63,213 nt of DNA, filler included, from Octopus bimaculoides (GCF_001194135.2; 6 parts of 6 records of this genome joined end to end with filler, not necessarily neighbours in it), one strand, 5' to 3'; shown: positions 11,310 to 57,966, counted from the first letter of the whole stretch. Numbers and translations: made by a program. The notes: generated by a model not told the origin, from the sequence alone.

Positions 11310-12500
11310 AGAGAGGAAGGAGTCTAGATATTCGCGGAAGATTGAGGTCGCACCGATACAGTCGTCAATATAACGGCCATTTAATTTATATATAAGTTTC
11401 ACTGGCCCCACTCCCGAATTAAATGGCCGTTATATTGACGACTGTATCGGTGCGACCTCAATCTTCCGCGAATATCTAGACTCCTTCCTCTCTTTTGTCA
11501 AATCTTTCCATCCATATATATATATCGGTGTGACCTCAATCTTCCGCGAACAGCTAGACTCTTTCCTCTCTTATGTCAAATCTTTCCATCCTGCCCTTCA
11601 CTTCTCCTGCACTATCTCTGACACTTCTGTCTCCTTTCTTGATATTTCGGTCAGCATTCATCACTCCACTCTCACCACCTCCATCCACTACAAACACATG
11701 GACTCACACTCATACCTCAACTTCTCCTCCTCCCACTCTAAGCACAACCCCAAGCTCTCCATCCCCTATTCCCAATTCCTCCGTCTATGCAGGCTCTGCA
11801 GTGACGACCATGACTGAAACTCAGTCTCAACTCATGGCTCGCCACTTCATCCTATGTGGATATCCCCTCACCACTATCCACACCACCCTTGTCAGAACAC
11901 GTTCCGTGGACCATGCATCTACTCTCTTCCACCGTACACGCCCCCCACCCACCTCTCCTCTCTTGCTCCAACTCTTACTTCTCTTCACTCCTACCCTCCT
12001 TTTCTCTTCTCTTCACTCCTACCCACCTTCTCCCTTCATCGTCACCCCCTCGTAACCCCACTCCTACAAAAAAACAACCTCACCGCACCCCATCCTTTAC
12101 ACCCACTCCCACATACCCAACCCTTACCCCAACCCTCAGCCTAACCCACACCCTACCGTTGCTTTTCTCACTCCCGCCTCCGTCACATCCCAACACCATC
12201 ACACCACACACTACCACGCCACACATCACTATACTTACACAACACCACATCACATTACACCACCACGCACACACTAGCACTGACCACTTCCCAGCACCCA
12301 ACCATCATCCACACACCTACACATGCACACACGCAAACGTCAAGGTCACCATCCCTCTTCTACACGCACATAATGCTCTCTTATACATACGCACGCGCAC
12401 CTTCGTTTTGGGATCACTACTACTTTATTATCTCCCTTTCAACTGACGGTCTTTTCAATAACCAGTTGCATGAAATTACAATTGCTGTTTAAAATCATAT
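11310..12500 (+). mobile_element. Penelope-like element RT remnant with inverted 5' duplication
   Basis: GPTPELNGRYIDDCIGATS (YIDD at 11431-11442), then VSFLDISV..TSIHYKHMDSHSYLNFSSSH..SIPYSQFLRLCRLCSD..GYP, typical of the PLE RT C-terminus. 11310-11386 is the reverse complement of 11417-11493. Confidence 0.85.
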
Positions 12501-13800
12501 TATAAAAATCGAAGAAATCCTTTAATCAAAAAATAGCTTGTGTAGAAGGGTAAAAGACCTGAATACCCAGGGTAAATAATTAGTGGTAAAAAATAATAAT
12601 AAATTTAAATAAATTAAGAGATATATCTGTTTAAAAAATAAACTTTCAAGCTAAAATGCATATGCATTTAGCAATAAATACCAAACAACATATACATATA
12701 TACACTGAGCATACAGGCGTTCGTACATGGCTACATACATATACAGACAAATATAGACAAAACATAGATATATACAAATGCATAGATATGTTTGCACACA
12801 CACGCACGCTCATATATACCAGACATTGTTTATAAAATGTATGCGTATATACGTTATGGTGTATATATTTATCTTTATGTGAAGACACGTCTCTCTCCCT
12901 CTCTCTCTCTCTCTCTCTCTCTCTCCCTCTCTCCCTCTCTCTCTCCCCCTCTCTCTCTCTNNNNNNNNNNNNNNNNNNNNNNNNNNNNNNNNNNNNNNNN
13001 NNNNNNNNNNNNNNNNNNNNNNNNNNNNNNNNNNNNNNNNNNNNNNNNNNNNNNNNNNNNNNNNNNNNNNNNNNNNNNNNNNNNNNNNNNNNNNNNNNNN
13101 NNNNNNNNNNNNNNNNNNNNNNNNNNNNNNNNNNNNNNNNNNNNNNNNNNNNNNNNNNNNNNNNNNNNNNNNNNNNNNNNNNNNNNNNNNNNNNNNNNNN
13201 NNNNNNNNNNNNNNNNNNNNNNNNNNNNNNNNNNNNNNNNNNNNNNNNNNNNNNNNNNNNNNNNNNNNNNNNNNNNNNNNNNNNNNNNNNNNNNNNNNNN
13301 NNNNNNNNNNNNNNNNNNNNNNNNNNNNNNNNNNNNNNNNNNNNNNNNNNNNNNNNNNNNNNNNNNNNNNNNNNNNNNNNNNNNNNNNNNNNNNNNNNNN
13401 NNNNNNNNNNNNNNNNNNNNNNNNNNNNNNNNNNNNNNNNNNNNNNNNNNNNNNNNNNNNNNNNNNNNNNNNNNNNNNNNNNNNNNNNNNNNNNNNNNNN
13501 NNNNNNNNNNNNNNNNNNNNNNNNNNNNNNNNNNNNNNNNNNNNNNNNNNNNNNNNNNNNNNNNNNNNNNNNNNNNNNNNNNNNNNNNNNNNNNNNNNNN
13601 NNNNNNNNNNNNNNNNNNNNNNNNNNNNNNNNNNNNNNNNNNNNNNNNNNNNNNNNNNNNNNNNNNNNNNNNNNNNNNNNNNNNNNNNNNNNNNNNNNNN
13701 NNNNNNNNNNNNNNNNNNNNNNNNNNNNNNNNNNNNNNNNNNNNNNNNNNNNNNNNNNNNNNNNNNNNNNNNNNNNNNNNNNNNNNNNNNNNNNNNNNNN

Positions 13801-13901
13801 AATGTATAAGTCCATCTTGACATAGCAGGGTCTATCAGGCTAGTAATTACTAGTATTACTAGCCTGATAGACCCTGCTATGTCAAGATGGACTTATATAT
13901 T
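13801..13901. repeat. 47-bp-arm palindrome with a 7-nt spacer
   Basis: 13801-13847 versus 13855-13901, one mismatch. It abuts an N gap. Confidence 0.9.
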
Positions 13902-14169
13902 CTTCCTCTGCTCTCTCCCACTTGGTTTTAATATGTTGCCACATTTGTAATATGTCTTTTTTTCTACATTTTTTCTACATTTTTTCGTGCAGCTGAAGAT
14001 TGCTCTTGATATATATATATATATATAGGTTATGAGCGAAAGTGGTGTCAATTAGACCCAGAGTTTTCAGGTAATGCTGAATAAGTGCTGTGGATAGACC
14101 ATAGTTAAGCTCCAGGTTCGGTGATTATGCGAATATGGGGTCCAACGGAGTTCATATATGAGCGTGCGA

Positions 14170-14349
14170 ATATAAGGATTTCGTAATGAGATAAAGAACC
14201 AAGGCTGTGTATTATATAGAACATTCATAAATAGATGATCTTACAGGGATATAATAAATATTCTGGAAACAGCTGTAAGATCTTCTATTTATAAATGTTC
14301 TATATTATACACAGCCTTGGTTCTTTATCTCATTACGAAATCCTTATAT
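14170..14349. mobile_element. Palindromic PLE-pLTR-like element with partial hammerhead motif
   Basis: Arms 14170-14246 and 14273-14349 with few mismatches. GAAACAGCTGTA at 14266-14277. Confidence 0.7.
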
Positions 14350-14352
14350 ATA

Positions 14353-55800: not shown

Positions 55801-56017
55801 GGACTTAACGGCTGTCTTGTCATATCTCTCGGAAGCATTTTCCACCCGCCAAGATTTGATTCTAATATAGCGGTATGTGAACGTGCGTCTTGCGATATTT
55901 TCTAACACATCGAATTGAGGGTTTAGAGCTACCCTTCTCCCATCTCGTTTTACATTTTTTTCTTGTATATTTTAATTCCTCTTCATCTATGTGGGAAATT
56001 TCCATATTTCTCGCCGC

Positions 56018-56332
56018 TTAGGCAAAAGACGCAGTGGCGATATTTGCGCTTTTGTGTCTCATTTCTTTCGTATTGTTGTTGCTGTTATTATTGTTGTTGT
56101 GGTTGTTGCTGTTGCTATCATTCCTGCTGCTGTTATTGCTGGCACTGCTGCTGATGCTGTTGCTGTTGCTGTACTCCTTGTCGACACCGAAAGTTTTGAC
56201 GTTGCTTAGAGACGAAACATTTTTAGCCTCGGTGACGTCAAGATTAGGCCATTTCAAATTGATATTCTCAATTTTATCCGACAATAAGCGCTTTGCTTTG
56301 GCGAACATTATGATGGCTTCTTTGTCAGCAAT
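56018..56332 (-). CDS. Probable terminal coding exon of an unidentified gene, with a Ser/Asn-rich C-terminus
   Basis: Pyrimidine-rich acceptor ttttactattttctgcaatttctaaAG, then a phase-0 open frame IADKEAIIMFAKAKRLLSDKIENINLKWPNL..ASFA* (105 codons including stop). No upstream exon was identified. Confidence 0.45.
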   Translation of the reverse strand: MADKEAIIMFAKAKRLLSDKIENINLKWPNLDVTEAKNVSSLSNVKTFGVDKEYSNSNSISSSASNNSSRNDSNSNNHNNNNNSNNNTKEMRHKSANIATASFA

Positions 56333-56655
56333 CTTTAGAAATTGCAGAAAATAGTAAAATATGTTTTTGCTGAAAGCAGTTAAAATTCAAAAATTATTTA
56401 TGCACACACCCCACCCCACCGCTCAAAAGAAGGTATCTTTCTACACGAAAATACCATCTGCGCAATCCAGAGAATGTCAGAAATGTACTGGTAATGTCAG
56501 AAATGAAAAGACGGGCCCCTGGAAAGCTGAAAAGATTACAAAGACTTGTTCGGCATACGGAACACCAAATTGCCGTGATATCGTACTATGGTGGCCATAA
56601 TAATAATAATAATAATAATAATAATAATAATAATAATAATAATAATAATAATAAT

Positions 56656-56874
56656 ACTCACTCAAACCCATCCGAACAAGAGTTCTACCACCCAAACAGA
56701 CCTTGTGGATAAATAACATCCAGAACAAAATTTAAAAAAAGAGAAAAGATTTATCGATTCTCAACGAAATTAGTAAACAATCAACACTACTAATTAACAA
56801 GAAGAAAACAAAAATACTGTACAAATACAGCATTACAGAAAAAGACTTATCTGAGGCAAAAGAAAAACTAAAGC
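56656..56874 (+). mobile_element. R4/Dong-type ORF N-terminal fragment starting directly after (TAA)n
   Basis: WINNIQNKI..RKDLSILNEI..KKKTKILYKYSI..EAKEKLK resembles the pre-RT region of R4-clade ORFs. (TAA)n at 56597-56655. Confidence 0.5.
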
Positions 56875-57694
56875 NNNNNNNNNNNNNNNNNNNNNNNNNN
56901 NNNNNNNNNNNNNNNNNNTTAATTAATTAANNNNNNNNNNNNNNNNNNNNNNNNNNNNNNNNNNNNNNNNNNNNATATATATATATATATATATATATAT
57001 AAAACAAAATAGGATTTAAAAAACCTGGCAGATACCAAGTGAGCACTCAGTATATATAGAGACATATATACATACATACATACATACATACATACATACA
57101 TCATATACAATACATACAAACAGGGAGGCAACATATATACACTGGAATTGTTGGAGTATAGAGACGCTAGATATGTCTATGAATGTAAATAAAATATTGA
57201 TTCGCATACTAAATACAGATAAGATAATGTATCACATGCGTAATATCTCGAGTAGAGTAACCATTATCTCAGTGTAGCCATGTCAGTAGCAGAAAACTCA
57301 CTGTGCATTTCAAATTAAAAAACGGAATCTCTTTATTTGTCCCATCCCTCCTTAAAAAATATCAGGTGTGTGTTGTGTGTGTGTTGTGTGTGTAATTACT
57401 TTCAGGATCCTTAAAAATCGTAGTATTTTGATAATAATGACACCATCGTAGAGTCAAGGACAGCATGCCCGTGTAACGACAGTGTTTACGGACACTCACG
57501 TGCTTAGTAGAATATATACGGGATTGTCCTTCCACTTATGCATACACCCACAATTGCTCACCAAACAGAATGAGCGTATATGTAAAATCATGCAGTAGTA
57601 TAAACCAGCATGCAGCCCACGGTCCGTTATAGAGTCAAAATCCAAAGCAGGGAAGGTTCCGAATGTGGTGTAGTAAAATGATAACTAAAACTCC

Positions 57695-57966
57695 CTACAG
57701 CTGCTTCAGACGTCTTTGTTATTAATGAACAAATCAATTACATCATGTATAAAAACTGTTTCCTTCAGATAAATTAAACTTAAAATAAAATCTACCGTTA
57801 AGATTTTACACACAGAGATTAGAGAGTCAGCATGATTTCTATAGTCTTTCTGTGAGAAAACCCTAAATGTTGAATATATTTATTCACCTGAAGAAAACGT
57901 TTTCTTTTTCATGATGTAATTTGATCTGTTCATCAATAACAAAAAATACGCCTGAAACAGTTGTAG
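57695..57966. mobile_element. Old outward-facing inverted repeat with decayed hammerhead motifs
   Basis: Arms about 57695-57775 and 57880-57966. CTGAAGA at 57888 and GAAACAGTTGTA at 57954(+); CTGAAGG..GAAGCAGCTGTA on the minus strand. Confidence 0.55.

Follow-up and report, generated by a model that had tools for sequence, protein, structure and literature searches.

Self-comparison of a 63,213-nt stretch of Octopus bimaculoides DNA (GCF_001194135.2; hereafter the window) revealed 14 local inverted loci, which together make up 11.9% of its non-N bases and several of which carry motifs resembling the hammerhead ribozyme. These loci behave like a pair of pseudo-long terminal repeats (pLTRs) of a Penelope-like element (PLE), and they are probably PLE insertion units of a known kind, belonging to new families and consisting of the 5'-truncated ends of several old endonuclease-bearing (EN+) PLE families. 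The design is already in print, and the finding adds families to it, not a new system. We infer PLE ancestry for the loci of the window that have no open reading frame (ORF), and their formal PLE membership is not closed because none of them is tied to an ORF. A previous sequence-only reading of the same DNA had named six inverted-repeat loci (14170, 19074, 20443, 34292, 37695 and 57695) as outward-facing, hammerhead-bearing derivatives of PLEs; all six were confirmed as local inverted repeats, as was a reverse transcriptase (RT) locus with an inverted copy at 11310, and both the PLE origin and the identity of the motifs as minimal type I hammerheads gained support. The window as a whole is AT-rich, microsatellite-rich animal DNA that includes 10,369 N as well as pieces of mariner, Tc1 and LINE elements.

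The inverted unit at 37695, its family and its RNA

At 37695, a short and a long arm (251/256 identical) point away from each other, and the following parts were identified:

37617..37631, plus strand: left copy of a likely target-site duplication (TSD) of 15 bp, identical to 39024-39038; 1 of 100 shuffles gave a repeat as long.
37632..37684, minus strand: tail of about 53 nt, a 3' extension that the short inverted arm has and the right arm lacks.
37685..37940, minus strand: short inverted arm with an intact minimal hammerhead (C3 at 37805, N17 at 37773).
37938..37972, plus strand: spacer, itself repeated, with a depth about 100-fold lower.
38721..39026, plus strand: long arm with an intact minimal hammerhead (C3 at 38905, N17 at 38937, stem III ATAAT), continuing into the N gap 37973-38720.

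The 15-bp direct repeat encloses the whole unit, tail included, and a gap of 748 N occupies its centre. Letters like those of the tail follow 39024-39026 in other copies of the family, both in DNA contigs and in RNA reads (30 letters listed), and other copies enter (TA)n. Positions 37938-37951 are possibly the last codons of a PLE ORF with its stop at 37949-37951, a weak reading made by eye; taken together with the letters found upstream of the spacer in other copies, they give G-L-N nine codons before the stop, resembling the ORF ends of related PLEs, again as judged by eye.

The region 37660-39030 was covered by contigs from two DNA runs and by raw reads from two RNA runs (about 6% of each). 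The summed depth of the arms was about 1e5-8e5, with single listed pieces at 32-123, which points to a family of thousands of copies, although the summed depth is itself no copy number. When both arms were summed by offset, the depth was about 0.85e6 at the motif, 0.4-0.5e6 at 100-170 nt upstream and 0.3e6 at 200 nt, and it was 2e3-8e3 in the spacer; this drop toward the 5' side fits 5' truncation of one longer element. No common 5' end was found among the copies within the 216 nt covered, and the exact 32-nt core of 37695 had no match in metagenomes.

Junctions leading from the left to the right arm were one-off, each with a depth of about 24-125, corresponding to the level of a single locus. 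This count is based on 14 of the rows listed, all running from left to right and lying within the arms at either end, and one junction may recur across runs; left out of it were one RNA row, two rows of the go-back type, one on the opposite strand and two whose start fell beyond the shared arm. The 28 arm starts in these rows spread from -167 to +69 nt around N17, with none of them within 5 nt of N17+1 and two within 10 nt.

RNA reads over 37660-39030 represented both strands about equally; for 13810-20660, the runs listed as containing it included none recorded as RNA. Changes of the A>G and T>C type made up 172 of 222 and 156 of 201 differing places in the two RNA runs (X21 and X22); the corresponding counts for the DNA runs were 9 of 25 and 7 of 23. 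These figures are to be read with the caveats that the animals differ between DNA and RNA, that contigs drop rare variants and that the reads stem from many copies. The dense A>G/T>C changes are likely A-to-I hyper-editing of 37695-family RNA, with ADAR as the presumable cause. Heavy editing of lizard Penelope and octopus RNA has been described (Porath 2017, PMC5625713; here and below, published systems are represented by parts of the articles cited), and the hyper-edited repeats of that study (lizard Penelope, a palindromic frog Harbinger, octopus) resemble the present ones in being repeat-derived fold-backs with dense A-to-G changes in RNA. In contrast, the repeat breakdown given there omits octopus, and the edit-like signal seen here belongs to one PLE-end family. 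No pile of read ends was observed at any place in the two RNA runs (about 560-600 reads each), which is weak evidence either way on cleavage. An RNA joint leading from 38933 back to 38869 (13 reads) ends 4 nt before N17 is reached; among the RNA joints listed for 37695 none fell at N17, in libraries that according to their records were not RNase R-treated.

Hammerhead-like motifs and the other inverted loci

A strict minimal-hammerhead descriptor matched the window twice, in the two arms of 37695, compared to 0.05 matches per shuffle (60 shuffles). When one core change was tolerated, the matches rose to 5, compared to 0.8 per shuffle (25 shuffles), the gains being 20217, 43179 and a weak match at 56151. 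With a graded, decay-tolerant score, 8 matches reached at least 19 (shuffle mean 0.33, maximum 2; 30 shuffles) and 4 reached at least 22 (none in 30 shuffles), an enrichment that is somewhat flattered, as the score was written after the loci had been seen. Since this score also fires within PLE ORFs (RT thumb region), single scores of 17-19 are no proof. Seven of the 10 best-scoring motifs lay inside the 14 inverted loci, and all seven faced outwards, in agreement with the polarity proposed earlier; with each locus counted once, 5 of 8 lay in inverted loci (binomial p about 0.001). Hence, both the inverted loci and the motif enrichment are real, yet the motifs are more decayed than earlier described. 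The pairs with hammerhead-like motifs other than 37695, none of which was assigned a strand as a whole, are listed below with their arm identities where determined:

14170..14349: head-to-head pair (74/77); right arm with partial stem II, GAAA, ACAGCTGT and N17 at 14277, without CUGANGA; left arm beginning within stem III; 4-nt ACAG overlap at the junction; spacer 26 nt.
19066..19724 (locus 19074): head-to-head pair (217/232); single motif in the longer left part on the minus strand, with C3 at 19443, N17 at 19375 and stem III ACAT; right arm beginning about 65 nt past N17.
19949..20340: additional pair; right motif from C3 at 20217 to N17 at 20294, with G12A and stem III ACATATGT; left motif with a core deletion.
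20409..20659 (locus 20443): head-to-head pair (101/118); motif in both arms, minus strand 20524-20474 with a core change (G12A) and plus strand 20542-20592 with a weak stem I; stem III ACTCTGAGT; spacer 7 nt.
34266..34697 (locus 34292): head-to-head pair (133/162); GAAA, stem III and C17 in both arms, plus strand 34576-34587 and minus strand 34384-34373, without CUGANGA.
57695..57966: head-to-head pair (100/121); right motif from C3 at 57888 to N17 at 57965, with a long stem II and a weak stem I; left motif with two core changes; spacer 12 nt.

Arm identity thus ranges from 82% to 98% among the six named loci, and in pairwise comparison (13 loci, 100 shuffles each) no two of these were related, confirming that they differ in primary sequence. 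The sequence-only reading had further ascribed one shared design of CUGANGA, stem II, GAAA and stem III to all of them. In its strict form this design was found at 37695 only (1/6), whereas 20443, 19074 and 57695, like the lone motif at 8813, reached the relaxed level, and 20217 and 43179 the level of one core change. The best whole-motif scores of 14170 (9.0) and 34292 (8.2) belong to loci that lack CUGANGA but keep GAAA, ACAGCTGT and N17. The motif claimed for 19074 is present, but in one arm only and with a stem III of ACAT instead of ACGT, while the pair at 19949-20340 and the lone minus-strand motif at 8813 had been missed. The arms of 20443 differ at paired stem II sites (TG/CA), which CpG decay could explain when judged by eye. 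Directly after the right arm of 14170, a mariner-type transposase piece (14350-15142) begins at a TA and masks the flank of that arm.

Folding z-scores ranged from -2.9 to +0.8 for 10 motifs, several of which gave no hammerhead fold, and thus provided weak support. No hammerhead family was present among the 150 of 195 Rfam matches listed at E<=10, which were microsatellite-driven miRNA-type entries only. For the seven motif-bearing loci of the window, the shared inner ends lie about -4, +65, -107, -55, -54, -167 and -127 nt from N17, so that the proposed clustering of breakpoints near the ribozyme holds loosely, over a span from -167 to +65 nt. Motifs scoring at least 17 were absent from the inverted pairs 13801, 30168, 43551, 46135, 53935 and 8046. 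The first of these, the RT locus and two further motifs are as follows:

13801..13901, no strand assigned: near-perfect palindrome (46/47) with a spacer of 7 nt, beside an N gap and without ribozyme motif.
11310..11386, minus strand: inverted copy of an RT segment, 77/77 complementary to 11417-11493, with a spacer of 30 nt, entering the N gap 10679-11309.
11383..11941, plus strand: 5'-truncated Neptune-type PLE fragment with YIDD motif and thumb, interrupted by a stop and containing an internal duplication of 78 nt (11445-11591).
43168..43222, plus strand: type I hammerhead-like motif with a 6-bp stem I, a 4-bp stem II, stem III ATCCGGAT and a U4C core.
8781..8813, minus strand: lone decayed motif with a graded score of 19.5, for which no inverted partner was found.

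The palindrome at 13801 possibly represents two very short PLE 3' ends. At 11310, the earlier description of a PLE RT with an inverted 5' copy proved to be real. Its 87-aa piece 11554-11814 found 550 relatives among 585 candidates and showed 57-75% identity to the 120 relatives listed, the long ones of which carry RT, CxxC and GIY-YIG, the last scoring below the Pfam cut-off; Pfam gave no match in the RT piece of the window, and its identity rests on these homologs. Homology ends at 11941 and is followed by C-rich sequence, and neither GIY-YIG nor hammerhead was found in or downstream of the element. PLE-type RT in the window is confined to 11383-11941, and the motif-bearing loci are without RT. 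A decayed GIY-YIG-like frame (51910-52260; YTGETSR, remnant 51941-52018) lies between (TG)n and (TA)n and weakly matches related PLE endonucleases.

The motif at 43173 has the core CCGAAGA (U4C) and a fold z of -2.62. It had been called a standalone hammerhead; the motif is there, but its standing alone is not established, as it begins 64 nt past a gap of 646 N. The sequence 3' of it (43261-43365) has a 72% similar copy at 51576-51679, both just past an N gap; the copy ends near a microsatellite, and the motif was not seen in it.

PLE relatives and the formation of the inverted pairs

Scanning metagenomes by protein alignment yielded 79 PLE loci. A sense motif scoring at least 17 was present in 14 of the 34 Neptune loci that have an ORF end and at least 300 nt downstream, mostly 90-135 nt after the ORF and with stem III ACGT; three related loci (L180, L187 and L197) share the U4C change of 43179, with the core CCGACGA. 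Among 12 motifs within inverted repeats of the relatives, 9 face outwards and 3 inwards. Seven inverted units were checked: in L131 and L164 the short inverted arm is extended by 50-56 nt and a 13-bp repeat flanks the unit (0/60 shuffles), L180 has the extension on its short arm with a flanking repeat that is not significant, and L158 is cut by the contig end.

These features agree with what has been described for PLEs, namely an adjacent inverted 5'-truncated copy, a tail of 30-40 bp on one end, a bias toward microsatellites and assembly gaps (Craig 2021, PMC8557442). Units of EN+ PLEs such as Neptune and Penelope/Poseidon (PMC8557442, PMC3846280) share with the present loci the head-to-head arms, one of them shorter, and the tail on one end, and they have in common with them the likely target duplication of 37695, the AT-rich or microsatellite targets and the gaps in short-read assemblies. 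Unlike those units, most of the loci here are too short to retain an ORF, and the tail of 37695 (about 53 nt; 50-56 nt in L131 and L164) is longer than the 30-40 quoted in PMC8557442. Thousands of diverse minimal motifs per genome with low dimer activity, as well as opposite-strand motif pairs, spaced by 100-700 bp and read as truncated PLEs, have been reported from metazoans (Cervera 2014, PMC4209133), and the motifs here share with those hammerheads the CUGANGA/stem II/GAAA design, the short stem I, the palindromic stem III, the diversity in sequence and the opposite-strand pairs at that distance. In contrast to the motifs described there, several here carry inserts of about 55-60 nt in stem II, closing pairs of the A-U or C-G type and stem III palindromes of 8-9 nt, and most copies are damaged in the core. 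Titles and abstract openings, with supplements and subscription papers outside scope, held nothing on octopus hammerhead ribozymes or on twin priming in PLEs, and the word hammerhead is absent from the main text of two octopus repeat papers.

The pairs may form when two cDNAs are primed on opposite strands of the target, each stopping early at its own point. The cDNA ends would then anneal via a few complementary bases, for which the hammerhead palindromes can supply microhomology, and repair would fill in, leaving two outward-facing 3' ends within a target duplication; two alternative start sites of the RT would account for the confinement of the tail to one arm. The hammerhead would be a passenger lying about 50-350 nt from the 3' end, such that copies truncated to a short length often retain it or have their break close to it, and breaks fall near the motif because of this position and because the loci were chosen for having it. 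Copies would later decay, and their transcripts would fold back and be A-to-I edited. Purified PLE protein has been shown to cut and extend both strands of AT-rich DNA, with RT starts at two sites that define the tail (Frangieh 2024, PMC11167929), and head-to-head pLTRs with tail and TSD were described by Arkhipova (2013, PMC3846280), where self-priming was favoured. The in vitro work left open how PLE inversions form, and for this step the pattern of junctions and tails offers a simple test on the scale of a genome.

Several observations weigh against assigning the loci to PLE insertion units of this kind. Linking the motif families to full PLE ORFs did not succeed: the motif-bearing loci of the window had no DNA match to the 79 PLE loci, alignment connected none of them with an RT or GIY-YIG, and the sole ORF link of 37695 is a hint of 14 codons made out by eye. 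Among the relatives, 20 of 34 loci are without a motif scoring at least 17, L161 carries its tail on the main copy, and the flanking repeats of L137 and L187 were not beyond chance. Within the window, one of 10 non-microsatellite loci, namely 37695, had a flanking repeat that exceeded chance (30168 lies in (AAT)n), and the family-level read data come from 37695 only. Regarding the junctions, the arm starts in 4 of the 14 rows are at most 6 nt apart, which fold-back priming fits equally; one contig joint falls exactly at N17 (37752/38937), amounting to a 20-nt deletion after N17, and the left arm of 14170 begins 0-4 nt from N17.

Such fold-back, in which one cDNA, or an antisense RNA (Arkhipova 2013, PMC3846280), would loop onto itself and copy its own 3' end, is a doubtful though far from negligible alternative. 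The short spacers at 11310 (30 nt), 13801 (7), 20443 (7), 57695 (12) and 14170 (26, with the 4-nt junction overlap) speak for it, as do the four near-symmetric junction rows. However, the extension sits on the shorter arm in 37695, L131, L164 and L180, where a copy of the longer arm could not have gained one, and since a tail-less longer arm cannot donate a tail, two RT starts are favoured. We also consider two RT starts on opposite strands likelier than an inversion seeded by the ribozyme, in which a cleaved RNA end would halt the RT and start the second arm, a mechanism of the kind suggested by the sequence-only reading (second-strand priming or template switching). Such seeding appears very unlikely to us, in spite of the two coincidences with N17 in 14170 and in one contig, since the 28 arm starts show no peak at N17+1, six of the seven window loci have their inner ends at least 54 nt away, and no pile of RNA ends was seen. 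Moreover, inversion occurs without a nearby ribozyme, because the inverted copy of the RT at 11310 has no motif, and cleavage-dead hammerheads still insert, and equally well, in vitro (Frangieh 2024, PMC11167929).

The nature of the families may likewise be explained in other ways, and the 37695 family may stem from an autonomous or from an internally deleted element. Dedicated non-autonomous PLE derivatives, with a pLTR or 3' untranslated region plus hammerhead moved in trans by the RT-endonuclease of a partner and the same head-to-head integration, are in our judgement an unlikely identity for some of the families (37695, perhaps 43173), but they would agree with the very high copy number of the 37695 arms, the depth that declines only gently in the 200 nt next to the motif on its upstream side, the short tandem-repeat interior and the lack of an ORF in the sequenced parts of 37695; non-autonomous PLEs are known (MRC1; Craig 2021, PMC8557442), as are pLTRs able to act in trans (Arkhipova 2013, PMC3846280). 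On the other hand, the depth keeps dropping toward the 5' side with no common 5' end in the part covered, the spacer is a rarer repeat, and the letters upstream, if weakly, resemble a PLE ORF end. The retrozyme-like character that had been proposed gained no support. Non-LTR retrozymes share with the present loci the type I hammerhead, the absence of an ORF and a likely PLE origin, but they are defined by 150-450 bp direct repeats that are arranged in tandem and yield circles (Cervera 2020, PMC7229834; Li 2026, bioRxiv 10.64898/2026.07.22.740005), whereas here we found inverted pairs, in the 37695 family with one-off junctions at single-locus depth, no motif in any of 58 tandem repeats (in sequence outside N gaps) and no evidence of circles among the RNA joints listed for 37695. 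It is therefore highly improbable that the loci are retrozymes making circular RNAs, even considering that the helices of 43173 are of canonical size (6-bp stem I, 4-bp stem II), that its neighbouring gap might conceal a tandem, and that 13 reads support a go-back RNA joint; this joint ends 4 nt short of N17, and outward motifs on opposite strands cannot excise a monomer from one transcript. Miniature inverted-repeat transposable elements (MITEs) of DNA-transposon origin would fit the long inverted ends, the TA-rich targets and the mariner and Tc1 pieces in the window, but would require that the motifs arose by chance, against their enrichment and outward polarity. The 37695 family lacks the fixed structure, symmetric termini and short fixed TSD of MITEs, showing instead variable, one-off inner junctions, a one-sided tail and a 15-bp flanking repeat, and although this contradiction is limited to 37695, we regard MITEs as an extremely remote explanation.

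If the loci are indeed PLE insertion units, they would constitute ready-made hairpins with edited-looking family RNA, and mis-labelled PLE ends may explain part of the repeat editing in this lineage. A more far-reaching version, which we put forward only tentatively and consider unlikely, is that thousands of ultra-short head-to-head PLE ends, arising through paired priming on the two strands of the target and united at small palindromes, form a built-in and self-sufficient source of double-stranded RNA feeding A-to-I hyper-editing, and that at least one family is now a non-autonomous hammerhead element moved in trans.

Further observations in the window

Hammerhead-like remnants were noticed in the spacers of the inverted pairs 8046-8344 and 43551-43853, by eye only. 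The repeat at 30168-30516, embedded in (AAT)n, has short inverted ends and an inner complementary pair with CTGA-like letters, and is not a hammerhead by the graded score. Inverted arms of 191 nt (88%) enclose at 46135-47351 a CA-rich spacer resembling the C-rich stretch after the RT at 11310, and no hammerhead motif was found there. A loose motif pattern also occurred in about 150 stretches of viral contigs and was taken as chance by a rough estimate. Two segments, 15120-15338 and 16974-17192, form a 219-nt direct repeat of 99% identity, possibly an assembly duplication. Finally, an exon-like frame on the minus strand (2236-2685) matches metallophosphoesterase; the repeats may be located within this host gene or close by.

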